Assembly: GCA_038063455.1 (NCBI GenBank) | Contig: JBBTVB010000002.1 | Coordinates: 257,296 to 321,295 of the forward strand | Direction of reading: 5' to 3' | Length of the DNA: 64,000 bases | DNA from: Patescibacteria group bacterium | Lineage (GTDB): Bacteria; Patescibacteriota; Patescibacteriia; PEXW01 | In this document: one piece after another, positions 19,259 to 44,211 of the stretch | Layout: every line of letters begins with the position of its first letter | Numbering within the stretch: the stretch's first letter is position 1 | Translations under genes and position numbers: made by a program | The notes under the pieces: model-generated | The model's database searches: none | What the model was told of the DNA's origin: nothing | The model's input: only the letters and a program-made list of their open reading frames with translations

Positions 19259-19274
19259 TGTTCCACGTGGAACA
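19259..19274. promoter_or_regulatory. parS centromere-like site TGTTCCACGTGGAACA (copy 1)
   Basis: Perfect 16-bp palindrome matching the chromosomal parS consensus TGTTNCACGTGNAACA. Lies 24 nt upstream of tRNA-Ala(CGC). Confidence 0.7.
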
Positions 19275-19298
19275 TATTGAAAATTAGCTAGTATTTAT

Positions 19299-19372
19299 GG
19301 GCCTGTGGTTCAGTGGTAGAACACGGCATTCGCATTGCTGAGACGGGAGTTCGATTCTCCCCAGGTCCACCA
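19299..19372 (+). tRNA. tRNA-Ala (anticodon CGC), CCA encoded
   Basis: Manual cloverleaf with the G3:U70 identity pair and anticodon loop TTCGCAT. Confidence 0.9.
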
Positions 19373-19480
19373 CGCACCAGTCGCCCGCGCTTCGCACGGA
19401 CTCCGGTGCATGGCAAGCCATCAAGCTAAAGTCTTTAATAAGGACAAAGCTGGTGCGTGCCGTGTACCCGAGTTCGTGAA
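19363..19480 (+). repeat. 118-nt perfect direct repeat, copy 1 (tRNA-Ala 3' end + trailer)
   Basis: Identical to 19749-19866 (offset 386), although the two tRNA-Ala bodies differ. Includes the CCA-pairing hairpin (19370-19413) and TGGCAAGCCA (19411-19420). Confidence 0.85.
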
Positions 19481-19632
19481 ACGGACGAGTGGTTCACGGC
19501 GTCTCTAGAGAATTCATGATACGCTCGGGTTCATGGCGAGCCACCTTTCTAAATGGCTCGCGAACTTATATGTAGCGAGTGGTTCATGCGCTGTACCGAA
19601 ACGAAGTGACTGGTACAGGGCACATATCGGAA

Positions 19633-19648
19633 TGTTCCACGTGGAACA
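19633..19648. promoter_or_regulatory. parS centromere-like site TGTTCCACGTGGAACA (copy 2)
   Basis: Second perfect copy, 374 bp from the first and 34 nt upstream of tRNA-Ala(GGC). Confidence 0.7.
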
Positions 19649-19682
19649 TTTGCGAGGAATGGTATAGGATGTTTAACAATAT

Positions 19683-19758
19683 GGGCCTCTAGCTCATCTG
19701 GTAGAGCGCTTCCATGGCATGGAAGAGGTGAGGAGTTCGAGTCTCCTGAGGTCCACCA
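19683..19758 (+). tRNA. tRNA-Ala (anticodon GGC), CCA encoded
   Basis: Manual cloverleaf with G3:U70 and anticodon loop ATGGCAT. Confidence 0.9.
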
Positions 19759-25975: not shown

Positions 25976-26974
25976 ATGACTGAACTCCATACCATTGCAA
26001 CGCAACTCCTGGCCGACCACAAAGGTTTACTCGCTGCGGACGAAAGCGTGAACACGGCCGGCAAACGGCTGGAGAGTATTCATTTGGAAAACACGGAGGG
26101 GAACCGACGGCAATATCACGCCCTCTTTTTTACCACCCCAGGGATAGAGCAATACATGAGCGGAGTTATCCTGCCCGACGAGGCCATGCACCAAGCTGCG
26201 GATGATGGAACGTCGTTCGTCCAGCTGCTGCAGCAAAAAGGGATTATCCCCGGCATCAAAGTCGACATGGGCGCCCACCCGATGCCTGACTCGCCCGAAG
26301 AAAAAATGACGGATGGGTTAGACGGGCTGGATACTCGCCTGGCCGACTACTACGCCCGTGGTGCGCGCTTTGCTAAGTGGCGCGCGGTCATTACGATTGG
26401 CAAAGGCATCCCCACTGACCACTGCCTACTAGAAAATGCCAAAGCCTTGGCCGAGTATGCCATGCTCTGCCAGAAAAACGGCATTGTACCAGTGGTCGAA
26501 CCCGAAGTGTTAATTGACGGTGACCATGACTTGGCCAAGAGTAAGGCGGTAACTACCAAAACCTTACAGGTGCTTTTCCAAGAACTCATTGCCCGAGATG
26601 TAGATCTTACCGGGGTAATCCTAAAATCCAGCATGGTCATTAGCGGGAACGCCTGCTCCACCCAGGCAACCGCGGCACAAATCGCAGATGCGACTATCCG
26701 CTGCTTCAAAAAATCCGTGCCTGCAGAAGTCCCGGGCATTGTCTTCCTGTCCGGCGGGCAAAGCGCAACGCAAGCCACGGAAAACTTGAACGCAATTGCC
26801 AAAGCGAACACTGGCCCGTGGACCATAAGCTTTTCGTACGCGCGGGCACTGCAAGAATCAGCCCTAGAAATCTGGCGAGGCAAGGCGGAAAATGTACCTG
26901 CTGCGCAAGCCGAATTTATCAAACGCCTGCAGGCCAACGTTGCGGCGAATCAGGGTCTGTACGTGGGCCAGTAA
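25976..26974 (+). CDS. fba: Fructose-bisphosphate aldolase, class I
   Basis: LLAADES..., class I aldolase pattern with the Schiff-base Lys context VILKSSMV. Confidence 0.9.
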   Translation: MTELHTIATQLLADHKGLLAADESVNTAGKRLESIHLENTEGNRRQYHALFFTTPGIEQYMSGVILPDEAMHQAADDGTSFVQLLQQKGIIPGIKVDMGAHPMPDSPEEKMTDGLDGLDTRLADYYARGARFAKWRAVITIGKGIPTDHCLLENAKALAEYAMLCQKNGIVPVVEPEVLIDGDHDLAKSKAVTTKTLQVLFQELIARDVDLTGVILKSSMVISGNACSTQATAAQIADATIRCFKKSVPAEVPGIVFLSGGQSATQATENLNAIAKANTGPWTISFSYARALQESALEIWRGKAENVPAAQAEFIKRLQANVAANQGLYVGQ

Positions 26975-27047
26975 TACGTTTGACGTTCACCAACCAATTG
27001 TCTAGGATTGCGGCAACCCTAGTACTTTGAAATTGGAGGAATACCAC

Positions 27048-27566
27048 ATGAAACGGAATATCAACATTCCGAACCTGCTCTCAACCCTGCGGATGCTGGC
27101 GGCCTTGCCTATCTGGCTGTTGCTCACCGCCAACCAACCAGGGTGGGCATTCTGCGTGTACCTAGGTGCGCTAGCCACAGACTTTCTAGATGGCTGGATT
27201 GCAGCGCACTACAACCAGGGCACAAAACTGGGAATGCTCCTCGACCCCTGGGCCGACAAAGTGTTGCACGTCACGGTGATGTTGCTATTCCTGGAAAAAT
27301 ATCCGCAACTGGAATTGCAGATCTACATTAGTATTGCACTGGCAATGGTCCTGGTCGGCTTAGCAAGCGCAAAGTTGTACTTCCGCGTCAAACGCCAGCT
27401 TGGCGCCAATGGGTTCGGCAAGATCAAAATGTGCTGCGAGGGCTTTGCAATTATTGCTCTTTTTCTTGGCTACGTTACTACCGGTGGCATACTCCTGTGG
27501 GCCTCAATCGCTTTTGCCGTGCTGAGCATTGTTACCCACCTGCTCATTCGTGAACCATCGTACTAA
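27048..27566 (+). CDS. CDP-alcohol phosphatidyltransferase family protein
   Basis: DFLDGWIAA...GTKLGMLLDPWADK = Dx2DGx2AR...Gx3Dx3D motif. GGAGGA SD before the ATG at 27048. Confidence 0.8.
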   Translation: MKRNINIPNLLSTLRMLAALPIWLLLTANQPGWAFCVYLGALATDFLDGWIAAHYNQGTKLGMLLDPWADKVLHVTVMLLFLEKYPQLELQIYISIALAMVLVGLASAKLYFRVKRQLGANGFGKIKMCCEGFAIIALFLGYVTTGGILLWASIAFAVLSIVTHLLIREPSY

Positions 27567-27599
27567 ACCAACAACGACTTCCCTACAAGGAAGTCGTCT

Positions 27600-28139
27600 T
27601 TATTTTACGGCCAGACCCTGCGCCATCAGGGTCACTTTGCGCTCGCGATCGTGGTCCAGCTCGATAAGCATGATCTGCTGCCAGTGACCTTTCACCAGTT
27701 TGCCGTTTTCAATAATCATGGTTACCGAGCAGGGTAAAATCATCGCCTGCGCGTGCGCGTGGCCGTTGATGCACTCGTGAATCACGCCGCAAATATCTGG
27801 CTCGCACAAATGCGTGTCGCGTTTGCCTTTGGGATTGTTCGCATCGCGGATGTCGTTGTGGCCATACTCTTCTTCCGGGTCGGCAAACCTATCCAGCACG
27901 CGCGCGAGATCGTTAACGTAACCTAACTTTTCCTTGGGGCCAATCAAATTCTTCTCATCCTCGTTGACCCAAATACTCGCTGTGGTGTGGTGTGACTGGA
28001 TGGTGATGGTGCCGGTCTGCACACCGCTCTCCGCAATAAAAGCATCCACCTGCGGAGTGATGGTAATAAATTCCTGACGGTGTTTCGTCTGGAAGGTAAG
28101 GGTTTTCGTGGCAGCCGTTGGCGTGAGTGCGTTCGACAT
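27600..28139 (-). CDS. YjbQ/UPF0047 family protein
   Basis: SHHTTASIWVNE and NGHAH motifs. Confidence 0.75.
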   Translation of the reverse strand: MSNALTPTAATKTLTFQTKHRQEFITITPQVDAFIAESGVQTGTITIQSHHTTASIWVNEDEKNLIGPKEKLGYVNDLARVLDRFADPEEEYGHNDIRDANNPKGKRDTHLCEPDICGVIHECINGHAHAQAMILPCSVTMIIENGKLVKGHWQQIMLIELDHDRERKVTLMAQGLAVK

Positions 28140-28142
28140 AAG

Positions 28143-28202
28143 GTAGGTGCAGAGCTTGCTCTGCTGGGCTATAGTTTAGAGGCGAGCAAGCTCGCCACCT
28201 AC
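28143..28202. repeat. REP/BIME-like element (same family as 8436-8493)
   Basis: GTAGGTGCAGAGCTTGCTCTGC ... GGCGAGCAAGCTCGCCACCTAC. Confidence 0.7.
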
Positions 28203-28231
28203 GGACATAATCCTGATACTACCAAATACCT

Positions 28232-28624
28232 ATGGATCCGCAAGTATTCCTCAATCCGAACTTCCGCTACGCCGTCGTTGGTGCAACAATAAACGAAGCG
28301 AAATACGGCTACCGTGTGTTGCAGGATTTGCATGGCGCGGGCTGGACAGTGGTGGGCGTGAATCCAAAGTACACCGAGGTGGCGGGCATACCCTGCTTTC
28401 CGAACTTGGGCGCACTACCGTGGAAGCCGGATGTTGTAGTGTCTGTTGTCCCGCCCGAAGTCGGTGATGAGATTTTGACCCAAGCCAAAGCCCTGTCCAT
28501 AACCCGCATGTGGTTCCAGCCCGGCGCCGAGTCGGACAAGATAATGATGCATGCTACTCGTTTGGGCATTACTACCAACGACCCGGGAACATGCATTATG
28601 GTGGCGCGGCGGTTGATGGCCTAA
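28232..28624 (+). CDS. CoA-binding domain protein (YccU/YneT-like)
   Basis: AVVGATINEAKYGYRV...GVNPKY pattern. The last 9 codons lie inside the 27-nt repeat. Confidence 0.8.
   Translation: MDPQVFLNPNFRYAVVGATINEAKYGYRVLQDLHGAGWTVVGVNPKYTEVAGIPCFPNLGALPWKPDVVVSVVPPEVGDEILTQAKALSITRMWFQPGAESDKIMMHATRLGITTNDPGTCIMVARRLMA
28592..28618 (+). repeat. 27-nt perfect direct repeat, copy 1 (flanks purL)
   Basis: TGCATTATGGTGGCGCGGCGGTTGATG, identical to 32659-32685. Confidence 0.9.
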
Positions 28625-28696
28625 GCACCTACTTTTAGGCAAAAGAAAACCCCGAACAAAATTGTTCGAGGTTTGTATGAAACAACAATTCTCCTT

Positions 28697-31600
28697 TTAT
28701 CTTTGGCACCAATCGTACGCATTCTGGAAAAATCGAAGCCAAGGGCTTGCCGGAAGCTGTTGCCACGCTTCCGGAATCCAAGGCTGCTGCCAGGCCAAAA
28801 AGGTGCGTTCAGGGTGCGGCATCATGGCCAAGTGCCGGCCATCAGGTGAGCACAGGGCGGTAATTCCTTGCGGACTCCCGTTCGGGTTAAACGGATAGAG
28901 CTCTGTACACTTACCATCTATATCAACGAAACGCATAGGCGCAAGGTGCTGCGTTACCAGCCGATCTAGCAACGCATTATCAATGCTATGCAGCCGACCT
29001 TCACCGTGAGAAGACCATACCCCAAGCGTTGAACCAGCCATGCCCGTAAGCATAATGGCTGGGGTCTCTTGGATCTGGACGGTTGAAAAACGAGATTCAA
29101 ATCGGCCAGAGATATTCCTGATGAACCTCGGTTGCATTTTCAGATCCTGGATATCGCCAGGAACCCAACCCAAGATAGTCATAAGCTGGCAGCCATTACA
29201 TACACCGAGCGAAAAAGTATCTGGGCGATTTCGAAACCGCGCAAACATTTTTGCCAGATGCTCATTGAAACGGATAACCCCGGCCCAACCTTTGCCTGCA
29301 TCAAGTACGTCGGCGAAAGAAAACCCACCAACAAATGCAAGACCCCGGAAATCATCCAAAGTCACCTCGCCATTCAGCAGGTCCGTCATATTCACGTCGT
29401 GAGCCTCAAAGCCTGCACTCATGAATGCTGCGGCCATCTCCCGGTCACCGTTGCTCCCCTGTTCACGGATAATCGCTACTTTCGGCTTCATGGAAGCCTT
29501 AAGAATAGCGTCTGCCGTGCGTTCAGGCACAAAGGTAAGTAACCGCGGTGGAGGCGTGACGATATTGAAGCTTCGTGTTTCGGCATCAACACAGTCAGGA
29601 TTCGCCTGCAGGCAATCAATGCGGCTAGAGGTTTCTTCCCAGATACCTCGCAACGTTACCATGCGTTCATTGAGCATGAGTTCCCCATTAAGAAACGCCG
29701 TAACATCGCCATCGTCCGTTACCCAACCAATGTGTTGGTGAGGAACGCTGTGTCTATGAAGGATTGCCGAAACTGCTGCCCCATCCGCGCACGCTAGTAC
29801 CAAGCCTGGCCCTTCATGAAAGAAGGTGGTGAGTGGATCTTCATCACTTTGCATGACGATGTTCACACCAACATTCCCGGCAAATGCCATTTCGAGCACG
29901 GCGGTAATCAGCCCACCATCACTTCGGTCATGGACAGAAGCAATAAGGCCTAATTGCACCAACTCTTGTACAGCATTGAACGTGCGAGCTAAGAGCCCAA
30001 CACTCTGAAGGTCAGGAAATTCGCTACCAACTTGTCCGTACACCTGGGCAAGCGCCGAACCACCCAAACCAAAAAATGGCCGTTCGTCAGCCAAGTCAAT
30101 AAAGAGTAATTCATTCTTAGTACTCTTCAAGTCTGGCGTGACTTTTTGTCTAATATCATCCATTGGCGCATAGGCAGCAAGCACAAGCTGGCCCGGCGCT
30201 TTCACGACATGGGGTTTTCCATCAGGACCAATTGCCTTGGCAGCCATAGACAAACTGTCTTTGCCGCCGTCAATGGCTATCCCGAGCTCAATTAATATGT
30301 CGCGCAAGGCACACGCCGCATCATACAGCCACGCGCCTTCGCCTGGCTCCTTCGCCGCGAGCATCCAATTGGCGGACAATTTAATGTCTGCCAAGCTGGT
30401 AATCTTAGCGCCAACCAAGTTCAGCAGCATTTCGCTAACTGCCAGTCGGGCCATGGCTTGCGGCGAAAGCAATCCTTTTATTGGTTGCTCACCAAGACTC
30501 TTCGCCGTACCGGTGAGACCAAAATAGCTATGGGCTTCAATGGCGTAATCGGCTAGGGTCAGCTGGTTTGGGCCCACACACTGTTGCTGGGCAACCAAGC
30601 CAGTCACGCTCCTATCTACTTTTGTGGTCAGAAAACGTTTTGAACCAACAGACACTAAACGTAAGACGCGCTCAAGGGCATCCCGAACGGTCAAGCTTGC
30701 TGGCAACTGTAACACTTCACGTTGAGGTTGGCGCCGCTCCAGCTGAAACGTCTTTTGCGGCAACTGCCCTAACACTCTATCAAGTGGCAAGTGCACCGGG
30801 GTGGTTCCGTCATTCTCGTCATGGAGAACCAGGCAGCCGTCACCAGTCACCTGGCCCACAATAGCGCAGGGCACGTCTTCACGGCTGCAGACTTCTTGCA
30901 GTTGATCAACGTGTTCGGGCCGCACGAGCAAGGCATTCCGCTCTTGCGACTCGTTGCACCAAATTTCCAACACGGACAAGGTCTGGTCACCAACCGGGAG
31001 CTGACGCAAATGTATGCGTGCCCCGGCCGGCTCAACAATTTCTGGCAGGGCATTACAATCGCCTCCCGCGCCAAGGTCATGGATAGTAACAATCGGGTTG
31101 CCGCTATCCATCTCCACACACGCTCGAACAACGCGGTTCACTCGTTGGGCCAGCTGTGGCGCGCCACGCTGAACCGCATTGAAATCCAGTTCAGCCGTGT
31201 TATCACCTTGGACCATCGAACTCGCTGCGCCGCCACCCAGACCAATGCGGTACGCTGGACCGCCGATCTGCACAACCAGCATACCGGTTTCGGGTTTGCC
31301 CTTGGTCGTATGCAGGTCGTTGATAAGACCAGTGCCCACCGAATACATAACTGGTTTAAACCAACTGCGGTAACCATCGGGTAAATCCATACCAAACGAT
31401 CGGGTAAAACCGTAGATGACAGGCTCGCCAAAACAATTTCCGTAATCTGACGCTCCGTTTGATGCCTGGATAAGGATATCAACCGGCGCAGCAAGATTGG
31501 AGGGGTACTTCCAACCATCCTGCTCCCAAGGTAGTACGTAGTCGGGAAGGTGAAGGTTGCCAACGCAATAAGCAACTCCGGCAGTGACCACCAAACCGCC

Positions 31601-32539
31601 GCGACCGACTGCCTGGTTGTCGCGGATGCGGCCGCCGGTTCCGGTGGCAGCGCCTGGATTGGGTGCAACACCCGAAGGGAAATTGTGCGTTTCCGCAGTG
31701 AGGGTTAGGTGATACGTTCGCCATTCCACCTGAAACGCACCCGGTTGTCCTGGGCACATCGGCAAAAGGGAAAACATGCTGTAACCGCGGATGGCTGAAC
31801 TATCATCACAAAAAGCAATCAAAGAGTTCCCAGGGTTATTTCTCCATGGCATTTTCACAATCTCCATAAGCGTCTCTGGCTGTACTCGATTGTCAATGAC
31901 GAGTTGGCCTTTGAAAAAACCATGGCGGGAATGTTCGGAGTTCGCCTGGCCCAGCTGGCATAGTTCAACGTCAGTTGGGTTGCGCTTTAGGACATTGGTG
32001 AAAAGGTCGCAGTACATTGCAATATCCTGGCTGTCCATCCCTAAACCACGCCGCTGGTTAAACACAGTTAACGCGTCTACACCTTCTTCAAGCAGCGGAA
32101 TAATCTGGATTGGCTCAATGACTCTGCTGGTCATGAAGCTTTCGGGTTGCATCACGTAGCGCATTTCTGTCATGCGATCGTGATGAGTCGCCACAAATGC
32201 CTCGACATCATCAGCAACCAGGCGCGCTGCAAAACCGTATCGCCTGGATCGTTCCAGACGCACAATTTTATGCAATCCACAGGCATGGCAAATTGATACC
32301 GCAGTGGAAGACCACGCAGTTTCAAAATTGAGCCGGGGGCCGATTTCGATAATTGTCGGTGCGTCGGCCAAAAATGAATTCTGGTCCAACTTTTCCAGTT
32401 CGTACGTCTCGCCCAGTAACCAGCGCAACAGCGTACATTCCGTCGTCGTAAGCTCGGCAGCTAGCTGGATGTAGTAACACCATTCTGATGCCACACCTAA
32501 GGGGGCGGCAGGGATTGATTTTCGGTACATTCGTAACAT
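28697..32539 (-). CDS. purL: Phosphoribosylformylglycinamidine synthase, single-chain large PurL
   Basis: 1280 aa with N-terminal, AIR-synthase-like repeat and C-terminal glutamine amidotransferase (GVCNGCQ) regions. SD AAAGGAGAAAG. Terminator at about 28650-28680. Confidence 0.95.
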   Translation of the reverse strand: MLRMYRKSIPAAPLGVASEWCYYIQLAAELTTTECTLLRWLLGETYELEKLDQNSFLADAPTIIEIGPRLNFETAWSSTAVSICHACGLHKIVRLERSRRYGFAARLVADDVEAFVATHHDRMTEMRYVMQPESFMTSRVIEPIQIIPLLEEGVDALTVFNQRRGLGMDSQDIAMYCDLFTNVLKRNPTDVELCQLGQANSEHSRHGFFKGQLVIDNRVQPETLMEIVKMPWRNNPGNSLIAFCDDSSAIRGYSMFSLLPMCPGQPGAFQVEWRTYHLTLTAETHNFPSGVAPNPGAATGTGGRIRDNQAVGRGGLVVTAGVAYCVGNLHLPDYVLPWEQDGWKYPSNLAAPVDILIQASNGASDYGNCFGEPVIYGFTRSFGMDLPDGYRSWFKPVMYSVGTGLINDLHTTKGKPETGMLVVQIGGPAYRIGLGGGAASSMVQGDNTAELDFNAVQRGAPQLAQRVNRVVRACVEMDSGNPIVTIHDLGAGGDCNALPEIVEPAGARIHLRQLPVGDQTLSVLEIWCNESQERNALLVRPEHVDQLQEVCSREDVPCAIVGQVTGDGCLVLHDENDGTTPVHLPLDRVLGQLPQKTFQLERRQPQREVLQLPASLTVRDALERVLRLVSVGSKRFLTTKVDRSVTGLVAQQQCVGPNQLTLADYAIEAHSYFGLTGTAKSLGEQPIKGLLSPQAMARLAVSEMLLNLVGAKITSLADIKLSANWMLAAKEPGEGAWLYDAACALRDILIELGIAIDGGKDSLSMAAKAIGPDGKPHVVKAPGQLVLAAYAPMDDIRQKVTPDLKSTKNELLFIDLADERPFFGLGGSALAQVYGQVGSEFPDLQSVGLLARTFNAVQELVQLGLIASVHDRSDGGLITAVLEMAFAGNVGVNIVMQSDEDPLTTFFHEGPGLVLACADGAAVSAILHRHSVPHQHIGWVTDDGDVTAFLNGELMLNERMVTLRGIWEETSSRIDCLQANPDCVDAETRSFNIVTPPPRLLTFVPERTADAILKASMKPKVAIIREQGSNGDREMAAAFMSAGFEAHDVNMTDLLNGEVTLDDFRGLAFVGGFSFADVLDAGKGWAGVIRFNEHLAKMFARFRNRPDTFSLGVCNGCQLMTILGWVPGDIQDLKMQPRFIRNISGRFESRFSTVQIQETPAIMLTGMAGSTLGVWSSHGEGRLHSIDNALLDRLVTQHLAPMRFVDIDGKCTELYPFNPNGSPQGITALCSPDGRHLAMMPHPERTFLAWQQPWIPEAWQQLPASPWLRFFQNAYDWCQR

Positions 32540-32658
32540 TTCTCTTTCTCCTTTCGAATTTTCAATCTACAATTTCAACTTTTTTTGATTGTTCACCTTA
32601 CCACCACCCAAAGTTGACTGTCAATGAAAAAATCTAACAAAAAGTGAATGAAAGTTTC

Positions 32659-32685
32659 TGCATTATGGTGGCGCGGCGGTTGATG
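32659..32685 (+). repeat. 27-nt perfect direct repeat, copy 2
   Basis: Identical to 28592-28618. Read in the CoA-binding frame it gives CIMVARRLMQK-stop. Confidence 0.9.
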
Positions 32686-32741
32686 CAAAAATAAAAGGAT
32701 TGCTTTTGGCAATCCTTTATCATCGAAAGAAAGTTTAGACT

Positions 32742-33161
32742 TCAACTGGCACGCACGGGCATGGGCATTCGAAAACGCTGTCTTGGTATGTAGCTCACGG
32801 TGCTATCCGGGTGAACAATGGCAGAGAGACCGCCAAATGCATCATCATATTTTCGAATAGTAATATGCATACCCTCAGACGCCATTGCGTTCACTGATTG
32901 AAAATACCAGTGACGAGTACACGCGCCTGGGCCGAGATCGGAAATCTGAACCCCGCTTGGCCATTCACCATTGGTGTGGTAGTAGCCAACAGCGTAGTTG
33001 GCAATTTGCTTTAAGAGCATATCGCCTTCGGGGATAATCACGGCATCACGCACTTCTGCTTGTAAAGCATCTATTTGCTTGTTGCTTTGCAGACGACCAA
33101 TAGTACTGGACGCTAAATTCACCAACGTCAGTACTAAAATCAATCCTACTAGAGCTTTCAT
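32742..33161 (-). CDS. Hypothetical secreted/anchored protein (start 33161 or 33197)
   Basis: Signal-like MKALVGLILVLTLVNLASS. GAAGGA SD before the ATG at 33161. Confidence 0.55.
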   Translation of the reverse strand: MKALVGLILVLTLVNLASSTIGRLQSNKQIDALQAEVRDAVIIPEGDMLLKQIANYAVGYYHTNGEWPSGVQISDLGPGACTRHWYFQSVNAMASEGMHITIRKYDDAFGGLSAIVHPDSTVSYIPRQRFRMPMPVRAS

Positions 33162-33353
33162 TTTCAATCCTTCTTTCCTTCTTTTTGTTTTATTCATTTA
33201 ACGTAGAATGATAGCACTTCAATATGATTATGTCAAGTCCAAGCTTGACAATAAGCGATAAGCCAGTTATAGTACCCGCGCTTCACATTTACTGGTACGG
33301 TAGCTTGGTTGCGGGCTCTCGCCCCTACTCGGCTTCCGCGAAAGGACCACGCT

Positions 33354-33653
33354 ATGCTCGAAAAGAGCGCCAAGGATAGGATCATCAAAAAGTTTAAGAC
33401 CCACGAAGGGGACACGGGCTCGCCCGAGGTCCAGATTGCGATTTTGTCGCATGAGATTGAACAGTTGGCTGAGCACCTGAAGACGCACAAGAAAGACTTC
33501 AGCTCCCGTCGCGGTTTGCTGAAGAAGGTTGGGCAGCGCCGCCGCCTGCTGGTGTACCTCCAGCGCGAGGACAACACCCGGTTTGAGGACCTGACCAAAA
33601 AACTCAAACTCAAGGCGCAGACCTACATCATTCCTACCGCGCCGGCTGAATAA
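33354..33653 (+). CDS. rpsO: 30S ribosomal protein S15
   Basis: [40 protein letters not shown]. Confidence 0.9.
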
Positions 33654-34222
33654 TGATTTCCACGGCTGACCAACGCATCGGGGTTTTCGTAGATCTCTCC
33701 AATCTGTACCATTCGGCGCGTCGCCTGCACGGCGGCCGGCCCAACTTTGGCGCAATTTTGGAAAAAGGCGTCGGCAACCGCAAACTCATCCGCGCGTTTG
33801 CCTACGGCATTAGCAACCAGACGGCGGAAGAAGAAAAGTTTTTTGAAAGCCTGACCAAGCAAGGCTTCGAGCTCCGGATGAAAGAGTTGCAGGTGTTCGG
33901 CGATGGCACCAAAAAAGGTGACTGGGATGTAGGCATTGCCATTGATGCACTGCGCTATGCCAAAAAAGTTGACGTGGTTATTCTGGTCACGGGTGATGGC
34001 GACTTTGTCCCCTTGGTCCGCGCCTTGCAGCACGAAGGTGTGCGCGTGGAAGGCATGGGCTATGGCCTGGCCGCCAGCGTGAAACTCAAAGAAGCGGTTG
34101 ACCAGTTCACCGACCTCTCAAATGACAAACGCTCGTTCCTGATTCCCAGCAAGCTGGCGCGCGAAGGCCGCTTGCGCTTGCCCTCGCACCCCTCGGTGGT
34201 GCGGGGAATTCTCTCTCGTTAA
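33653..34222 (+). CDS. NYN-domain (LabA/DUF88-like) protein
   Basis: IGVFVDLSNLY...AFAYG...VILVTGDGDFVPLV pattern. The ATG overlaps the rpsO stop. Confidence 0.8.
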   Translation: MISTADQRIGVFVDLSNLYHSARRLHGGRPNFGAILEKGVGNRKLIRAFAYGISNQTAEEEKFFESLTKQGFELRMKELQVFGDGTKKGDWDVGIAIDALRYAKKVDVVILVTGDGDFVPLVRALQHEGVRVEGMGYGLAASVKLKEAVDQFTDLSNDKRSFLIPSKLAREGRLRLPSHPSVVRGILSR

Positions 34223-34337
34223 TTCATTTCTCTCTCATAAGCCCAGGTTGGTATTCGGAGTTTGAAGTCAAAGGTTCACCGCAATGCGGATCTTCGACTG
34301 CAAACTGTGGATGCCCCGGGCATAAAGGACCCTAGGT

Positions 34338-36638
34338 ATGGCAGACCCCAAAACGTTTTCCGCCGAGATTGGCGGCAAGACCCTAACCATCCAAACCGGC
34401 AAGTACGCCGGCTTGGCCGATGCGGCGTGTACTGTCCAGTATGGCGACACCGTCATCTTGGCAACGGTTGTGCTCTCCAGCAACGTGCGCGACGGCATTG
34501 ATTACTTCCCGCTGATGGTGGACTACGAGGAACGCCTGTACGCAGCAGGAAAAATTAAGGGCTCCCGCTTTATTAAGCGCGAAGGCCGCCCGACCGACGA
34601 AGCAATTCTCACCGGCCGTGTCATTGACCGCTCGGTGCGGCCGCTCTTCGACGACCGGATGCGCAACGACGTGCAGGTGAGCATCCTGGTGCTGTCCGTG
34701 GACCAGGAGAACGACCCGGACATGCCGAGCTTGATTGGTGCGGCAACCGTTCTCTCCATGTCACAAATCCCGTGGAACGGCCCCATCGCCGGCGTGCGCG
34801 TGGGCCAGATTAACGGCGAGTGGGTGTTAAACCCTAGCTATGAAGCGCGCGAAAAGTCTGATCTCGACCTCGTACTGGCAGCCAGCAAAGACAAAGCCGT
34901 GATGATTGAAGCCGGAGCCAAACAAGTGTCCGAAGACACCATTGCCGGCGCTGTAGAATTCGGCATGAAGCACAACCGCAAAGTTATTGAGCTCATCGAG
35001 CAAGTCGTGGCTGCGGTTGGCCGAGAAAAAATTGTCATTACCACGGCCGGGGATGATGAAGAGCTAAAGAAAAAGATGCAAGCCAAGGTAGAAACTTTCT
35101 TCTCGGCTGACAAAAAGCAAAATATCTTTGCTGACCCAAGCAAGCAGGCACAACATACTGCTATTGAAAAACTGACGACGGAACTTGATGAAACCCTCAA
35201 AGCGGACAACGACGTGAACAAAGATGAGCGCGCCTTGGGCGTGGGTATGCTAGAAGCCTTGATTGACGAAGCCTCTATGGCCCTGGTGCTCGACACCGGT
35301 AAGCGCGTGGACGGCCGCGGCGTGGATGAAGTCCGCCCGCTGTCCGCAGCCGTTGGCTTACTCCCGCGCACGCATGGCACGGGTTTGTTCCAGCGCGGCG
35401 AAACCCAGGTGATGTCCATTATCACCCTCGGCTCGCCTGGTGATGAGCAGACCTTGGACGGCATGGAAGAGAACGGCAAGAAGCGTTACATGCACCACTA
35501 CAATTTCCCGTCCTACTCGGTGGGCGAAGTGAAGCCGAACCGCGGCCCCGGTCGCAGAGAAATTGGTCACGGCGCGTTGGCCGAAAAGGCACTCGTCCCG
35601 GTGTTGCCAGATAAAGAAGCGTTCCCCTATACCATTCGCGTGGTGAGCGAAGTGCTCTCGAGCAACGGTTCGACCTCGCAAGCTTCGGCCTGCGGTTCGT
35701 CCCTGGCACTCATGGATGCGGGCGTGCCGATCACGGCGCCGGTTGCGGGCATTGCCATGGGCATTATCGTCGACCCCAAAGATGCCACACGCTACAAAGT
35801 CATTACCGACATCCAGGGCATCGAAGACCACGCTGGCGGGATGGACTTTAAAGTTGCCGGCACCAAGCAAGGTATCACCGCCATCCAGGTAGACATCAAA
35901 ATTGATGGCTTGACCATGGACATGGTGAAAGAGGCACTCACGGGCGCGCTCAAAGCCCGTTTGCAAATCCTGGACGTAATGACGCAAGCAATGCCAGAGC
36001 CGCGCAAAGAACTTTCCCAGTACGCCCCGCGCATTACCAGCATCCGCATTAACCCTGAACTCATCCGCGATGTTATTGGTAAGGGCGGCGAGACCATTAA
36101 CAAAATTATTGACGAGTGTGGTGGCGCCGACGTTACCAAAATTGACATTGATGATGACGGCTTGATCTTCATTACCTCCACTAACTCCGAAATGGCCAAG
36201 AAAGCCGAGGAGTGGATTAAGAACATTACTCGCGAAGTCGTACCGGGTGAAATCTTCGAAGGCACGGTGACGCAGATAATGAAAGACCGCAACAGTGGCG
36301 GCGAAATTGGCGCCATTGTGGAATTTGCTCCGGGCAAAGACGGCATGGTGCACATTTCTGAATTTGCCGAAGCGCGCATCCGCGCCGTCTCGGACATTGT
36401 CCAAGTTGGCCAGAAGCTCAAAGTGAAAGTGATGGATGTGGACAAAGAGCGCGGGCGCATTAGCTTGTCGGTGAAAGCGCTGGGCGCGGAAAGCGGACTA
36501 GTTATTCCAGACTCTGCCTATGACACCGGCGGTCAGGGTGGCTTCCACGGCACCGGTGGCCGGGACCATCACGGCCCCCGCGGGTTCGGTGGCCCAGGTG
36601 GCGGCAACGACCATGGCCACTTCCGCCGACGGGAGTAG
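34338..36638 (+). CDS. pnp: Polyribonucleotide nucleotidyltransferase (PNPase)
   Basis: Two RNase PH domains, KH (GKGGETINKI) and S1 (GTVTQIMK...GMVHISE), with a Gly-rich tail. Confidence 0.95.
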   Translation: MADPKTFSAEIGGKTLTIQTGKYAGLADAACTVQYGDTVILATVVLSSNVRDGIDYFPLMVDYEERLYAAGKIKGSRFIKREGRPTDEAILTGRVIDRSVRPLFDDRMRNDVQVSILVLSVDQENDPDMPSLIGAATVLSMSQIPWNGPIAGVRVGQINGEWVLNPSYEAREKSDLDLVLAASKDKAVMIEAGAKQVSEDTIAGAVEFGMKHNRKVIELIEQVVAAVGREKIVITTAGDDEELKKKMQAKVETFFSADKKQNIFADPSKQAQHTAIEKLTTELDETLKADNDVNKDERALGVGMLEALIDEASMALVLDTGKRVDGRGVDEVRPLSAAVGLLPRTHGTGLFQRGETQVMSIITLGSPGDEQTLDGMEENGKKRYMHHYNFPSYSVGEVKPNRGPGRREIGHGALAEKALVPVLPDKEAFPYTIRVVSEVLSSNGSTSQASACGSSLALMDAGVPITAPVAGIAMGIIVDPKDATRYKVITDIQGIEDHAGGMDFKVAGTKQGITAIQVDIKIDGLTMDMVKEALTGALKARLQILDVMTQAMPEPRKELSQYAPRITSIRINPELIRDVIGKGGETINKIIDECGGADVTKIDIDDDGLIFITSTNSEMAKKAEEWIKNITREVVPGEIFEGTVTQIMKDRNSGGEIGAIVEFAPGKDGMVHISEFAEARIRAVSDIVQVGQKLKVKVMDVDKERGRISLSVKALGAESGLVIPDSAYDTGGQGGFHGTGGRDHHGPRGFGGPGGGNDHGHFRRRE

Positions 36639-36670
36639 GAACAACTAAAAAGCTGCGAGGCTTTAGGGCC

Positions 36671-36694
36671 GTAGGGGTGGAGCTTGCTCCACCC
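36671..36694. repeat. REP-like single hairpin GTAGGGGTGGAGCTTGCTCCACCC
   Basis: Same family as 8436-8493. Confidence 0.65.
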
Positions 36695-36800
36695 TTTTAG
36701 CTGTCAATTTTTCCGAGCGTGGGCGGCCCTGCCCGCGCTTGTTGATATTTGACTGGTTATTACATATACTCTAAAAAATAAAAGTGATATGGAGGTAAAA

Positions 36801-37244
36801 ATGTATAACTTGAAAACTCAAAAGTGGCTTTTTCTCATAACTTCGATTGGTATTGGTGCTATTGGGTTGTGCTTGCTGTTGAGTCTGATACCAATAAGTA
36901 CTGTCCTCATACCGCTGGCTATCTTTACCAGTCTATTAGGCTGGACACTACACGGAAAAATCTGGCCGAAGCAATTATTGAAGTATGGGTCGGCATGGAA
37001 AGCTGTACTAGTTAGTACTGGTTTATTCTCTGGGATAATAGGGCTATGCCTCATCATTCTAGCCATCCCTATGAGCTTGGGTTTGAAAATGCATATCAAT
37101 TTCCAAGGGCTCTTGCAATACTGCCAAGGCATCTGGGTGTCGTATATATTGATACTCTACGGACAAGGCAGCAGTATTTTTCTCGACTGGCTGATGCCTA
37201 AAGTCACCCGCTTCCGCCGCGCTGTCGCACTGTCGAGCATCTAG
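36801..37244 (+). CDS. Hypothetical membrane protein (AT-richer)
   Basis: GGAGGT SD before the ATG at 36801. Four hydrophobic segments with an internal repeat (IGxIGLCLxL..IP). Confidence 0.55.
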   Translation: MYNLKTQKWLFLITSIGIGAIGLCLLLSLIPISTVLIPLAIFTSLLGWTLHGKIWPKQLLKYGSAWKAVLVSTGLFSGIIGLCLIILAIPMSLGLKMHINFQGLLQYCQGIWVSYILILYGQGSSIFLDWLMPKVTRFRRAVALSSI

Positions 37245-37477
37245 CATTTGTTCAACCGTTCTTCTGAAAACCCGTTCTGCAATATGGCGGGTTTTTATTT
37301 TTTAAAGATCAGCGCACGTTAGAAAACATACGCTGGGATTCAATTATGGATACCGAGCGTACCTTCTCCAAGGTGCGCGAGTATGCAGTGACCACTGGGT
37401 TTCCCGGGCGGCTTTTGGCAGTATTTGACATTAAAATGATATGACTTATACTCTATATATCGTATAACGATATATCT

Positions 37478-37801
37478 ATGAATAAAGAGCAACTCAAAGG
37501 GCATTCCACCATGCTCATCCTGGCCACCCTAGAGCGCAAATCCCTCCACGGCTACGCTCTCTCACTAGTTCTTCGGGACAGCATGCCGGACGAATTTAAG
37601 TTTGGCATGGGGATGCTGTACCCCTTGCTGCACAAGCTGGAGAAGCAAAAGTACATTACCGGAGCCTGGCAGGAAACCGGCAATGGACAACGCCGGGTGT
37701 ACGAACTCACCCGGAAGGGGGAAAAAGAACTCCAGGCGAAAAAAGCTGACTGGGTGGTGTTTCAAAAAGCGATCACTCGCATTATCCACGCCGCCGTATG
37801 A
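37478..37801 (+). CDS. PadR-family transcriptional regulator
   Basis: LHGYAL...MLYPLLHKLEKQKYI...RRVYELTRKG. Confidence 0.85.
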   Translation: MNKEQLKGHSTMLILATLERKSLHGYALSLVLRDSMPDEFKFGMGMLYPLLHKLEKQKYITGAWQETGNGQRRVYELTRKGEKELQAKKADWVVFQKAITRIIHAAV

Positions 37802-38406
37802 CACACGAAGAATTCTTAAACATATTCCGCAAGGAACTCTTGGTAGGTGGGCCGCGTCGAGAAAAACTGGTGATGGAACTTGGGCAGCACCTAGGAGAAT
37901 TGGGTAAGCATACCGACGCCATTACCGAGTTTGGTCGGCCCGACGTCCTTGCGAAAAAATATAGTCAAACCCACTTGGGAATTTTTAGCAGTCGTCTAAA
38001 AATTGTAGCGCTTTTTGCACTCGCTTGGCTTTTCATGGAGAATGCACACTGGCTATACGCTTCCACGTTAAGCACCAAGCTCTCGGTGGGTCAGGCGGGA
38101 CTAGTGATTGCCATTACAACAATTGCTGGGAATCTTTTGATAAGTATCTTTTTTGCTTTTCTCTTGCAAAAAATACATCAAAAGATAATTGTGATTTTCA
38201 GTGCACTTTTTATGTTCCATATCCTGGAAGTTACGCTGAATATTTTGCTCTTGCGGGATTGGGACGGACCGTTACCACCAATATTATTTGCAAACTTTAC
38301 TAGCGTTATAAATATTAGTAGTCTATTATTCTATATTTTCGCGGCTTTAGGCGTGTACAAAATTTTGACATACGTCAAAAAACAATTGTCAAAAGAAGCG
38401 GACTAG
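37798..38406 (+). CDS. PadR-associated membrane protein (DUF1700-like N-terminus)
   Basis: ATGA overlap with padR. N-terminal soluble helix followed by 4 TM segments. Confidence 0.6.
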   Translation: MTHEEFLNIFRKELLVGGPRREKLVMELGQHLGELGKHTDAITEFGRPDVLAKKYSQTHLGIFSSRLKIVALFALAWLFMENAHWLYASTLSTKLSVGQAGLVIAITTIAGNLLISIFFAFLLQKIHQKIIVIFSALFMFHILEVTLNILLLRDWDGPLPPILFANFTSVINISSLLFYIFAALGVYKILTYVKKQLSKEAD

Positions 38407-38460
38407 GGCCGTGATGCAATACGTACCTCCATCTAGAAAGATTTCTGCTATCCTGTAAGT

Positions 38461-38871
38461 ATGCTCGCCCACCACTGGCACCCCCTGCACCCCGGCCGAA
38501 CCTTTGCGGGAACCATCCTCATTCTCACCTTCCTCTTTCGAGTGTGGGTGGTTTTTATTATTATCACGTTTGCCGCAACCCGCTACGGTTTGTCTGAACA
38601 GCTCATTGGGGCCAGCGCCATAAGCGCTCTGGCAATTATTCTGGACTTCTTCTTCACCGCGCGGCAATTTATTGGCTGGGACAAAACTATACCGCTGCGG
38701 TTTACTACCTACGCGATCAAACTAGCACTCATACTGGTAGCGGTTTGCTACGCGGCAAGCATCTGGCATGCCCGTCACGTCGTAGCATACTCAGCATTTG
38801 GTCTTTTCGTGGCTGCAATATTTGCACTAGACTTCCTGCTACTCCACCCCCATGCAAAAACGCGCCGCTAG
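38461..38871 (+). CDS. Hypothetical membrane protein (136 aa)
   Basis: Four hydrophobic segments. Overlaps the next gene by 20 nt. Confidence 0.5.
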   Translation: MLAHHWHPLHPGRTFAGTILILTFLFRVWVVFIIITFAATRYGLSEQLIGASAISALAIILDFFFTARQFIGWDKTIPLRFTTYAIKLALILVAVCYAASIWHARHVVAYSAFGLFVAAIFALDFLLLHPHAKTRR

Positions 38872-39208
38872 CTTCCTTATCGTTACGACTATCCTGCTGG
38901 CATGGAGCCTGCCCGGACTGGCGCAGGCCCTGTCCATTGAAACCGTGGGCGGCACGCTGGGCTTGGGTAGTGCAGATTTAAAAACCACCACCGTCAACAT
39001 CATCCAGTGGGTCTTGGGCCTGCTCGGGCTCATTGCGGTAGCCATGATTATTATAGGCAGCATCGTTGCTGCGACGAGTGCGGACAGCGACCGCGGGGAC
39101 GCCGCACGGAAAACAATTCTTGCGGCAATCATTGGACTGATTATTATTCTTATCTCCTGGGCCATTGTCACGTTTGTGATTGGCACCACCACAAATGTAA
39201 CCTCATAG
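38852..39208 (+). CDS. TrbC/VirB2-like small pilin-type membrane protein
   Basis: Signal peptide ending LAQA, then two TM helices separated by a charged loop (SADSDRGDAARK), the typical VirB2/TrbC topology. Confidence 0.5.
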   Translation: MQKRAASFLIVTTILLAWSLPGLAQALSIETVGGTLGLGSADLKTTTVNIIQWVLGLLGLIAVAMIIIGSIVAATSADSDRGDAARKTILAAIIGLIIILISWAIVTFVIGTTTNVTS

Positions 39209-39266
39209 CATTAGGACGCGCGCAAAAACACCCGAACCATTGGTTCGGGTGTTTTGAAGGTGCACG

Positions 39267-39803
39267 TTAGACAGTACGTCGCTTCCGATAGGCAGCTACA
39301 GCTATAGGGATAATATGTTCCCAGTGATGGTCGATAGTGTTCTCGGGAAGATTATCAATATCGTACCAAGCGCCACCTGTAGGCTCACCGTCAAGTTCAA
39401 CGAGGAAAATTCGGTTATTGAAAGAACCGCGCTCTTCTTCGAAAAAAATTTCACCCACCAAATCAAAATTGGTAATGCCCACATGAAACTCACGCTTCGC
39501 CAAGCGGTCTATGACCCGACGGTACGCTCCATCGCTACAGGGGTCAATGTTTTCGAAATCGCTATTACGAAGAATGCTGCCGGGCGAGTGCTTCTCGCCG
39601 GGGTAGGCAGGTTCGTCGTCCGGTCTCTGGATCATATACACCTCAATAGTGTTGTTAGACCCTTGACGCAGAGCAACTGTTTCGACGGCGACCTGCGGGG
39701 TGAGGCGGGCGAGGGAGCCAAAAAGTTCCGGCGAAAATCCGTCACGACTATTGATGGCTGCCAATTCTCCCATAGCAAGCTGGCTGAGGACTTGTTGTGC
39801 CAC
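39267..39803 (-). CDS. Hypothetical protein (178 aa; possible Nudix-like fold, no canonical Nudix box seen)
   Basis: Clean ORF with no competing frame. Weak resemblance only. Confidence 0.5.
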   Translation of the reverse strand: MAQQVLSQLAMGELAAINSRDGFSPELFGSLARLTPQVAVETVALRQGSNNTIEVYMIQRPDDEPAYPGEKHSPGSILRNSDFENIDPCSDGAYRRVIDRLAKREFHVGITNFDLVGEIFFEEERGSFNNRIFLVELDGEPTGGAWYDIDNLPENTIDHHWEHIIPIAVAAYRKRRTV

Positions 39804-39908
39804 GTATACTCTCCTTTGGTAATGTGCGTCTCTGCACGTTGATTGTGTGTTTTTGAACTAACTATGGTACCGTAGAAAGTACTTTTTGTCAAGGGTTAAC
39901 ACAGCTTC

Positions 39909-40472
39909 ATGATCATCACCATCAACGGCCGGCCCGGGTCCGGCAAATCCACTACCACGCAGCTCCTGGCTAAGGCATTGCACTTCCGTACTATTGATGT
40001 CGGCCAACTGCGCCGAAAGGCCGCGAAGCAGCACGGCATGACCCTGCACGAATTTAACCAGTGGTCCGAAAAACACCCGAATGCCGGCGACAAAGCCTTT
40101 GACCGGGCACTCGTTGCTACAGTGAAGCGGACAAAAAACGTCGTGGTAAGCAGCCGCACGGCCTTTCACTTCTTCCCCCAGGCATTCAATGTCTTCTTAG
40201 ATGTGAGCCCTGGTGTTGGTGCGCGGCGCATCCAAGCCGACCAGCACGACCGCTCCGTTGAAACTGGAAAACTCACCAGCGTCCGCGCTATCCAGCAAGC
40301 GGCAGCTAAACGCATGCGAAACGACGACCGCCGGTACCGAAAACTCTACGGCATCAACATTTTCCAGCAAAAAAACTACTCCTTCATCCTGAATACCACC
40401 CGTATCCCCATCCCGCAGGTTGTGCGCCGGGTACAAGGTGCTTTCCGCACCTGGCAAAAGCGCAAAAGCTAA
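39909..40472 (+). CDS. Cytidylate kinase-like P-loop kinase
   Basis: IITINGRPGSGKST Walker A with archaeal-type CMP kinase-like layout. Confidence 0.65.
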   Translation: MIITINGRPGSGKSTTTQLLAKALHFRTIDVGQLRRKAAKQHGMTLHEFNQWSEKHPNAGDKAFDRALVATVKRTKNVVVSSRTAFHFFPQAFNVFLDVSPGVGARRIQADQHDRSVETGKLTSVRAIQQAAAKRMRNDDRRYRKLYGINIFQQKNYSFILNTTRIPIPQVVRRVQGAFRTWQKRKS

Positions 40473-40501
40473 TTTTGGCTAACCTTAGCCACACCAGTTT
40501 G

Positions 40502-40530
40502 TTGACAAAGGGTCAAATTCCTGCTATACT
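40502..40530 (+). promoter_or_regulatory. Consensus sigma70 promoter TTGACA-17-TATACT
   Basis: Hexamers at 40502-40507 and 40525-40530. No ORF with SD downstream. Confidence 0.65.
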
Positions 40531-40536
40531 CCCTGT

Positions 40537-40957
40537 AGAAATAGAAACCGCTCCTTCATCAATCCAACGACTACTGCACTTGGGCCAACCAAGGAGCGAG
40601 AAGTACGACAGCTGGCACTACCAAACGTTGTGGGGCTTCTGTTCTACTACTCGTCATAGCTGTCCATGCAGCTGACTGAAAAGAAAAACTAGGAGAATAT
40701 AAAAATTCCCTAGCTTAAAAGGTTAATCTTTACGCTTTCGAGCCAGAGATATAACCACAAGAGTGGTAGTCACATTTATCGCGAAAACATGGAAAGCGAT
40801 GAATACACAGTTGTTTGTGGTTTATGATAATGCCTGCCACGTTTGCGTCTGCTCCTAGCGAGAAGAATCAAACGTGGCGGACATCGTCTACACAAACAAC
40901 CATTTAAGGGGCAGCCTATTAATCTCTATGATATACAGGCGTCGCCCCTTTTATTTT
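40537..40957 (+). ncRNA. Candidate ~420-nt structured non-coding RNA of unknown class
   Basis: Bounded by the promoter above and the terminator AAGGGGCAGCCT...AGGCGTCGCCCCTT + TTATTTTT (40906-40958). Long-range pairs include GTTGTTTGTG (40811-40820)/CACAAACAAC (40891-40900), GCCACGTTTG/CAAACGTGGC and GCTCCTT/AAGGAGC. Confidence 0.45.
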
Positions 40958-40994
40958 TGCTGAAAAAAAGTGAAAAATAGCGTATACTGCATGC

Positions 40995-41789
40995 ATGGCC
41001 AAAACTGCACCCACCAATGCACACGAAGCAAAGCTCCGGAAAGCCGGGCACCGACTGATTGCGGGCGTGGATGAAGCAGGCAAAGGCAGCTGGGCAGGGC
41101 CACTGGTTACTGCCGCGGTGATTTTGGATGAGAACGATATCCCGAACGAACTATATGATTCAAAAATGCTCACACCCGCACAACGCGAGCGAGCTTTTGT
41201 CGCAATCGCGAAAAAAGCATTAGCCTGGTCTGTGCACGTGGTGTCGGTTAACGACATAGATACGCACGGCGTGCACAAAGCAAATATAGCCGCGCTCAAA
41301 CGTGCAGTGGACAAACTCCACATCTCCCCCGATGCGGTGCTGGTTGATGCATTCAAAATTGATCTGGGAAAAATTCCCATGGTTAATATTATCGATGGCG
41401 ATGCGCTGGAACGAACCATTAGTGCCGCATCCATAATGGCCAAAGTCTCGCGAGATCGCTTGATGAGCTCGGAAATCCATCGGGCGCACCCAGAGTTTCA
41501 TTTTCATATTCATAAAGGTTACGGCACGCCCCTCCATGCAAAACTGCTTGCGATGCATGGCCCATCGCTCGAGCATCGCATGAGCTTTGCGCCGGTGAAA
41601 GCTGCGGCGGCTAAACCAAGAAAAAAGTCTAACGCAAAACGCAAAGCGAAACCAACAAAGAAAAAACTGGGCGCAAAAAAAGCAGTGCGACGTACAGTCC
41701 GCACAAAATCCGCAAAAAGGAGTATAACAAAGAGAGCGTCGCGCAAGCGGATAGCGAAGCCGAAACGCACAATACGCAAACGACGGTAA
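40995..41789 (+). CDS. rnhB: Ribonuclease HII with ~55-aa Lys/Arg-rich C-terminal tail
   Basis: GVDEAGKGSWAGPLVTAAV, DSKMLT and KGYGT motifs. The tail is KPRKKSNAKRKAKPTKKK... Confidence 0.9.
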   Translation: MAKTAPTNAHEAKLRKAGHRLIAGVDEAGKGSWAGPLVTAAVILDENDIPNELYDSKMLTPAQRERAFVAIAKKALAWSVHVVSVNDIDTHGVHKANIAALKRAVDKLHISPDAVLVDAFKIDLGKIPMVNIIDGDALERTISAASIMAKVSRDRLMSSEIHRAHPEFHFHIHKGYGTPLHAKLLAMHGPSLEHRMSFAPVKAAAAKPRKKSNAKRKAKPTKKKLGAKKAVRRTVRTKSAKRSITKRASRKRIAKPKRTIRKRR

Positions 41790-41795
41790 ACCCCT

Positions 41796-44177: not shown

Positions 44178-44211
44178 CTTCACTTATTTCCCTTTCGTAA
44201 CGCGTACCTGT

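Follow-up and report, generated by a model that had tools for sequence, protein, structure and literature searches.

Probable recent insertion of a purL-only cassette into the 3' end of a CoA-binding gene, with duplication of 27 bp, in a groundwater Patescibacterium

We analyzed a 64,000-nt stretch of DNA (hereafter the window, to which coordinates refer unless another sequence is named) from a Patescibacteria group bacterium (GenBank assembly GCA_038063455.1, contig JBBTVB010000002.1, positions 257,296 to 321,295 of the forward strand). In it purL, the gene for phosphoribosylformylglycinamidine (FGAM) synthase, lies between two copies of a 27-bp direct repeat at the end of a gene for a CoA-binding protein. 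We consider it likely that this arrangement arose by a recent, lineage-specific insertion of a 4,040-bp cassette, carrying purL only, into the last codons of this conserved CoA-binding gene of a groundwater Patescibacterium, and that 27 bp were duplicated in the event. The evidence comes from the two repeat copies, from the uninterrupted gene in relatives (L-numbers below are our handles for the sequences compared), and from the near-saturated divergence between the window and its closest such relative.

The 27-mer TGCATTATGGTGGCGCGGCGGTTGATG occurs exactly twice on the plus strand of the window, at 28592-28618 (copy 1, the left junction) and at 32659-32685 (copy 2, the right junction), with 0 mismatches between the copies. 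No further copy was found in the window even at 3 mismatches, and none occurred in 100 dinucleotide-preserving shuffles. The repeat is sharply bounded, no similarity being detected beyond the 27 nt either upstream or downstream of the two copies. Copy 1 is coding: it corresponds to the last 9 conserved codons (CIMVARRLM) of an intact 130-aa CoA_binding_2 gene at 28232-28624 on the plus strand (PF13380, E=6e-27), whose product ends in ...GTCIMVARRLMA before the stop. The final codon and stop of this gene (A-stop) are supplied by the insert. Copy 2 is non-coding; read in frame it gives CIMVARRLMQK-stop, after which a hairpin follows at 32694-32718 (10-bp stem, T-run on the minus strand). The CoA-binding homologs all end in an invariant GTCIMVARRL and a short variable tail, and residues C121-L128 of the window protein (CIMVARRL) were invariant in 15 homologs. 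The original prediction, made from the window sequence alone, had described the perfect 27-nt repeats at these positions and both gene ends. Exact search, the open reading frame (ORF) at 28232-28624, the in-frame reading of copy 2 and the hairpin behind it agreed with that description. Among the results that would undo it, it had also named a full pur pathway together with a repeat that is a common repetitive extragenic palindromic (REP) sequence. We rejected a REP or other dispersed repeat, as the window has two copies and the relatives have one copy only, which is the coding 3' end of the CoA-binding gene.

The closest CoA-binding protein outside the species is 95% identical and comes from L012 (Patescibacteria H51-bin156_1); the same sequence was found in L021-L023 and L026. 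In L012, L021 and L026 the gene runs uninterrupted into ...TGCATTATGGTGGCGAGGCGGTTATTGCAAAAATAAAAGGATTGCTTTTGGCAATCCTTT, which encodes CIMVARRLLQK-stop, and purL is absent. The L012 gene end reads in full TGCATTATGGTGGCGAGGCGGTTATTG-CAAAAATAA-AAGGATTGCTTTTGGCAATCCTT and is followed by the same hairpin and then by a convergent 139-aa ORF, which is 48-49% identical to an ORF at 32742-33161 of the window. From CAAAAATAA through the hairpin, 33 of 33 nt are identical between L012 (8388-8420) and the window (32686-32718, plus strand), where they form an orphaned tail CAA AAA TAA (QK-stop) and a terminator hairpin. Because of this identity to an uninterrupted gene end, copy 2 together with QK-stop and the hairpin represents the original gene end, and because the L012 site is uninterrupted, 28619-32658 plus one copy of the 27-mer is extra DNA. 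The cassette so delimited (28619-32658, 4,040 bp) was absent at the homologous site of L012 and L021 and of all other relatives examined. This empty site supports the earlier reading of purL as a discrete insert and bears out the claim that copy 2 preserves the ancestral gene end.

Other relatives were consistent with this picture. A block consisting of FBA, CDP-OH transferase, YjbQ and CoA-binding genes was kept in at least 8 relatives, and purL was found downstream of it in 0. In L004, whose CoA-binding protein and PNPase are 90% and 96% identical to those of the window, neither purL nor the 139-aa ORF is present, and the rpsO promoter has the end of the CoA-binding gene inside its -35 box. 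Over 26123-44394 the window and L004 are collinear except for the purL gap and a second divergent stretch at ~36650-38440. Relative to L004 the extra window DNA is larger (about 28619-33243), and because L004 also lacks the 139-aa ORF, the locus must have changed more than once. Six further relatives (besides L012 and L004) kept the upstream block and had unrelated genes downstream, no purL and no second copy of their own 27-mer. The original prediction had allowed that an arrangement common to all relatives would speak against it; the synteny comparison showed that the arrangement is not shared. L003 was considered as an additional empty site and rejected: its sequence has the structure of the window, and a purL fragment had merely been left uncalled in the gene table. 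Two observations on the locus in relatives are recorded here in their own right. Three independent contigs (L021, L022 and L023) stop at an identical position 142 nt upstream from the 139-aa ORF, which suggests a repeat or a strain-variable junction. In L027, a distant relative with a contig of only 1.8 kb, the 139-aa ORF adjoins rpsO as it does in the window, and a tyrosine-recombinase fragment (Phage_int_SAM_1 and Phage_integrase; 1219-1800) lies on the far side of the ORF from rpsO, the place taken in the window by purL and the CoA-binding gene.

We then considered direction and age. In a neighbor-joining tree of four shared proteins (outgroups L007, L013, L014 and L016), the window branched outside the pair L012 and L004, and on this tree a single gain on the window branch would be the most parsimonious history. 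Between the window and L012, 31 of the 64 fourfold-degenerate sites of the CoA-binding gene differ, which is near saturation (Jukes-Cantor estimate ~0.78 substitutions per site). Copy 2, which is non-coding, matches copy 1 at 27/27 positions, and the probability of no change, if it were older than the split, is ~e^(-27x0.39), or ~3e-5. Since the copies are identical despite near-saturated neutral divergence from L012, the insertion appears recent and lineage-specific. By our estimate (95% limit set at 3/36 sites), and barring gene conversion, it happened no earlier than roughly the final fifth of the window branch. The identity of the 33-nt tail and hairpin to L012 also coexists with these near-saturated sites in the adjacent gene, and could reflect strong constraint on a bidirectional terminator or recent exchange.

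The cassette contains only a terminator hairpin, purL and the purL upstream region, the content that had been described for it earlier (a terminator, a 1280-aa purL on the minus strand, and an AT-rich upstream region with a Shine-Dalgarno sequence). The hairpin scan placed an intrinsic-terminator-like structure (12-bp stem and T-run; 28647-28674, minus strand) just past the purL stop and 23 nt past the new stop of the CoA-binding gene; to judge from this position, it could end transcription of both convergent genes. purL itself occupies 28697-32539 on the minus strand and encodes an intact, large single-chain enzyme of 1280 aa. Its upstream region (32540-32658, minus strand, 119 nt) is AT-rich and has a GGAG-type ribosome-binding site ~8 nt before the ATG (around 32546-32553). 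A weak promoter-like match on the minus strand (TTTGCA-16-CATAAT, 9/12; 32662-32689) overlaps repeat copy 2 and points to purL, so that the relic of the old gene end could act as part of the purL promoter. A search for riboswitches or other RNAs in the cassette gave only a sub-threshold sRNA match (23.8 bits vs a gathering score of 100). We also noted that 17 nt inside purL (30466-30482, coding for PIKGLL) form a perfect inverted match to the left arm of the relic hairpin (32690-32706). Five relatives have Ile at a position of the PIKGLL site that is Leu in the window PurL, and the Leu lengthens the match. As a recombination footprint this match was set aside as probably due to chance, one other non-trivial 17-mer inverted match being present in the 64 kb.

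The product of purL has every mark of an ordinary member of its family. All five Pfam domains are present in order (FGAR-AT_N, FGAR-AT_linker, AIRS_C, FGAR-AT_PurM_N-like and GATase_5; 5/5). It scored 1538 bits against the NCBIfam equivalog TIGR01735 (cutoff 1123, residues 15-1277) and 1361 bits against NF003672 (cutoff 783). The best PDB matches were full-length and were FGAM synthases, 9n9w (1215 bits) and 1t3t (902 bits). In an alignment with 31 homologs, from bacteria of the candidate phyla radiation (CPR) to a turtle, the protein retains 217/217 of the columns in which these do not vary. The glutaminase domain has GVCNGCQ at residue 1112 and HPER at residue 1242, motifs which we take, by analogy with StPurL, to belong to the catalytic triad. 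By these features the ORF would be a bona fide large-type FGAM synthase (EC 6.3.5.3). It has the five-domain architecture of the enzymes of Salmonella/E. coli (1t3t) and human (PFAS, 9n9w), from which the protein itself is no different, but it falls within a PurL clade dominated by Patescibacteria. The gene looks fully functional and would give or replace FGAR-to-FGAM amidotransferase activity.

With regard to the source of purL, we searched a 5.8-billion-protein database, from which the best 120 matches were listed. Among these matches the closest PurL outside the species was only 71% identical and belonged to Patescibacteria. A neighbor-joining tree placed the window PurL as sister to this ~71% group in 100/100 bootstraps. 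The wider clade around it includes sequences named Kazan, Kerfeldbacteria and Saccharibacteria and is separate from a clade with the names Deltaproteobacteria, Nitrospirota, Gemmatimonadota and Deferrimicrobiaceae. In three independent genomes of the ~71% clade (L008, L009 and L024) purL lies beside metG, and in two of them a 399-aa divergent PurM-like gene is located nearby (L009 12823-14022 and L024 12727-13926; TIGR00878 80 bits, cutoff 236). No direct repeats flank purL in L008 or L009. Elsewhere among these sequences, a RAYT-like Y1 transposase adjoins purL in L009, and in L025 (14989-15648) purL lies within a Wzy/glycosyltransferase cluster that also has a Formyl_trans_N gene.

The composition of purL was similar to that of its surroundings. 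Its GC content is 52.7% vs 51.6% for the window, its distance in relative synonymous codon usage (RSCU) is 0.375 (host range 0.32-0.71), and its tetranucleotide correlation of 0.83 is inside the host range. Compositional foreignness was therefore rejected, GC, GC at third codon positions (GC3), RSCU and tetranucleotides all lying within the range of host genes. The comparison of codon usage and k-mers that had been put forward as a check on acquisition could be carried out, and it spoke neither for nor against transfer because all values were host-like. Placement in the Patescibacteria clade together with host-like composition points to a source either in a Patescibacterium of similar composition or elsewhere in the same genome, and we infer that purL probably came from within the Patescibacteria PurL radiation.

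The structure is not confined to one assembly. A segment of 6.6 kb across both junctions was base-identical in 3 assemblies, namely an NCBI metagenome-assembled genome (MAG), a Logan assembly and an ENA assembly. Because the structure is identical in the three, a simple assembly chimera is unlikely; they were produced by different pipelines and probably derive from one aquifer, possibly with overlapping reads. We assign the window to MAG GCA_964364675.1 (contig CAYIMS010000003.1), and related contigs derive from Hainich groundwater samples.

For the mechanism of insertion the junctions suggest a simple model. Most likely, circularised DNA carrying the same 27 bp would have integrated by a single crossover, either by att-like site-specific recombination catalysed in trans or by RecA-type recombination on short homology. 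With either route, identical copies on both flanks and a restored gene end would follow automatically. The left copy keeps the invariant CIMVARRL(M) in frame and the insert adds one codon and a stop (A-stop), so that the host gene survives. The right copy, QK-stop, the old terminator and the convergent 139-aa ORF are the orphaned ancestral end. Because the eight residues CIMVARRL are invariant in the family, only insertions restoring them would be expected to survive. The predicted circular junction of the cassette would be ...GAAAGTTTC-27mer-GCCTAAGC..., and as an alternative step linear DNA might have been captured at a 27-nt staggered break and then filled in. The new tail, MA-stop, resembles tails of CoA-binding homologs (for example, RRLIA-stop and RRLMAH...), which hints that the insert may have brought a homologous gene end with it. 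Elsewhere in the window the last 21 nt of a tRNA-Lys gene (6677-6697) are repeated perfectly at 6812-6832, 135 nt downstream and with 114 nt between the copies (region 6622-6832). The duplication has the look of an attL/attR-type relic, left by an element that integrated or was excised, and it leans to the crossover model for purL. The 2-5 kb beside the tRNA-Lys relic showed the lowest tetranucleotide correlation with the window (0.42-0.45), and the ORFs there had no Pfam match.

Several results weigh against a recent insertion of this kind, or against particular ways in which it could have happened. The cassette has no recombinase or transposase, purL being the sole ORF with any family match between the repeats. 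No match to the Phage_integrase family turned up among the scanned window ORFs, and no dyad symmetry typical of a recombinase core was seen in the 27-mer, as judged by eye only. The lack of an integrase, of recurrence and of an obvious dyad counts against a dedicated site-specific system. No donor purL closer than 71% was present among the 120 matches listed, the cassette ends showed only 10-15-nt chance matches to the unrelated flanks of purL in the 71% clade (L008 and L009), and a second instance of the cassette or of its end sequences was not found anywhere. A phage vector was rejected, since IMG/VR contained neither a related purL nor the 27-mer. A JGI metagenome search with the 27-mer gave no match, and a JGI search with the tail and hairpin matched only L026 (a 14,603-bp contig from well H51, as is that of L012). 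As for age, gene conversion rather than youth could in principle keep the copies identical, and precise deletion between the repeats would also give the L012 sequence. The latter leads to an opposite history, in which purL was an ancient, repeat-flanked resident lost from the relatives by precise recombination between the 27-nt repeats, an event that restores the L012 arrangement of one 27-mer, CAAAAATAA and the hairpin. We regard this history as very improbable: it needs a gain and at least one loss vs a single gain on the four-protein tree, purL occurs at this site in 0/8 relatives or outgroups, and copy 2 shows 0/27 changes against near-saturated neutral divergence of the lineages.

Other explanations accept the extra DNA and differ in its origin or in how it arrived. 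A vertically inherited purL elsewhere in the genome, for example beside metG, may have moved into the end of the CoA-binding gene with no foreign DNA involved. The composition of purL, indistinguishable from that of host genes, fits such a relocation, as do its nearest relatives, which are Patescibacteria of similar GC (L009 53% vs window 52%), and the different but conserved site beside metG in the 71% clade. However, relocation requires the same unexplained insertion step, and no purL above 71% identity was among the best 120 matches, below which short fragments may have fallen, even though the assemblies of L012/L021 and L004 are in the database; on balance we find it doubtful, though deserving of some weight. 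Somewhat less weight still should be given to capture at a break, or a transposon-like event, in which incoming DNA without prior homology was joined at a 27-nt staggered cut and fill-in gave a true target-site duplication. The duplication is indeed perfect and sharply bounded, and there is no known donor with a CoA-binding gene end next to purL. We consider such an event unlikely, as the cassette has neither a transposase nor terminal inverted repeats (the best end-to-end inverted alignment of the insert scores 8 vs a shuffled mean of 8.3), 27 bp far exceeds the 2-15 bp target-site duplications known for bacterial transposons, and the homolog-like MA-stop tail hints at an imported gene end. 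It is quite improbable, in turn, that the cassette is a minimal recombinase-less mobile unit, which would excise as a circle with one 27-bp att-like site and re-integrate at the CIMVARRL-coding end by means of a tyrosine recombinase acting in trans. An artefact, whether a chimeric assembly or a common REP-like repeat lying by chance around purL, is the least probable of all and can hardly be entertained. It is true that the source is a metagenome-assembled genome and that the three assemblies may share reads, but 6.6 kb over both junctions is identical from different pipelines, each junction has coherent reading frames and regulatory signals, and the 27-mer has two copies in the window and is found in relatives only at the homologous gene end. 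A recent insertion on the window branch remains the likely explanation.

Comparison with known systems showed both similarities and differences. In integrative elements such as prophages, integrative and conjugative elements (ICEs) and integrative and mobilizable elements, tyrosine recombinases place the element in a tRNA or protein gene, at its 3' end, for which the element brings a replacement. Like these elements, the cassette has identical flanking direct repeats in the manner of attL/attR, it targets the very 3' end of a conserved gene, that gene is rebuilt with a slightly different tail, and the block of identity stops where element and host diverge. Identical repeats at both junctions and a single-copy empty site in a relative, as expected of a site-specific element, were found. 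However, the 4-kb cassette has no integrase, excisionase or mobility genes and carries one housekeeping-type enzyme gene as its cargo; neither a second occurrence nor a recognisable recombinase-binding dyad was found. The ORFs between the repeats include no element-encoded recombinase, and neither the element nor other cargo recurred at the same att site in the relatives or in the viral and JGI metagenome collections. The relatives do differ in the genes that follow the CoA-binding gene, which is only suggestive of recurrent cargo. Similarly, the cassette does not have the transposase and terminal inverted repeats of a transposon.

Two further comparisons are closer in some respects. Cis-mobilizable elements (CIMEs), att-flanked modules without a recombinase, are known from the ICESt families of Streptococcus thermophilus. 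Like the cassette, they are short, have att-like repeats and no recombination genes of their own, and need a recombinase in trans. However, CIMEs sit beside, or derive from, a recognisable ICE, and none is visible in the 64 kb of the window, the sole nearby hint being the recombinase fragment of L027. Campbell-type single crossover and homology-facilitated illegitimate recombination in natural transformation also leave, as here, a homologous segment duplicated on both sides and involve no element-encoded enzymes. For RecA-dependent recombination in E. coli, the reported minimal efficient processing segment is close to 27 bp. The Campbell-type route requires a circular incoming molecule already carrying the 27-mer, and no such donor configuration was observed. 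The locus is best filed as a well-documented new instance of single-gene insertion with duplication of a gene end.

The surroundings of the cassette are ordinary chromosome. Among the genes of the window are those for IF-2, RbfA, RNase Y, ClpP, PNPase, S15, trigger factor, H+-PPase, class I aldolase and transketolase, and the named homologs of local genes are from Patescibacteria, Kerfeldbacteria, Parcubacteria and similar groups. The 139-aa hypothetical ORF (32742-33161, minus strand), which is convergent with the CoA-binding gene and belongs to the pre-insertion locus outside the cassette, has a hydrophobic N-terminus and matched nothing in Pfam or NCBIfam. Collinearity with L004 resumes beyond it, at 33245-33653 (plus strand), which holds a promoter-like site (TTGACA-17-TATAGT) for rpsO, the leader and rpsO itself. 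On the other side, a CDP-alcohol phosphatidyltransferase gene (27027-27566) has only 46-48% identity to the genes at its position in L004 and L012, vs 76-96% for flanking genes, and may be a replaced or fast-evolving allele. Also, two tRNA-Ala genes (19299-19372 and 19683-19758) are enclosed by long direct repeats (region 19138-19755), indicating tandem duplication of a ~380-nt tRNA-Ala unit.

The original prediction had further stated that the 64 kb holds no other purine-biosynthesis gene. This proved correct: Pfam scans and the precomputed annotation of identical or collinear contigs revealed no other pur-gene family among the ORFs of the window. Because pur genes are often scattered, their absence from 64 kb says little about a lone purL. 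In a survey of 399 CPR MAGs, 32% had a complete de novo purine pathway (PMC11608272). A literature search turned up no paper dealing with purL in CPR or Patescibacteria.

Insertions flanked by duplicated gene ends are already known and large PurL proteins are widespread in Patescibacteria, so that the locus alone overturns nothing. Genomes of CPR/Patescibacteria are very reduced, and the gain and reshuffling of biosynthetic genes in them are poorly documented at base-pair resolution. Here the window keeps the state after the event and a relative keeps the state before it, the junctions are exact, and a 27-bp duplication rescues an invariant C-terminus. If the improbable mobile unit described above were real, the end of the CoA-binding gene would serve streamlined CPR genomes as a dedicated docking site for metabolic cassettes, which would explain both the variable gene content downstream of it in almost every relative and the recombinase fragment of L027. 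If the rest of the purine pathway is absent or different in close relatives without purL at this site, the insertion would mark a datable change in the nucleotide self-sufficiency of a presumed symbiont.

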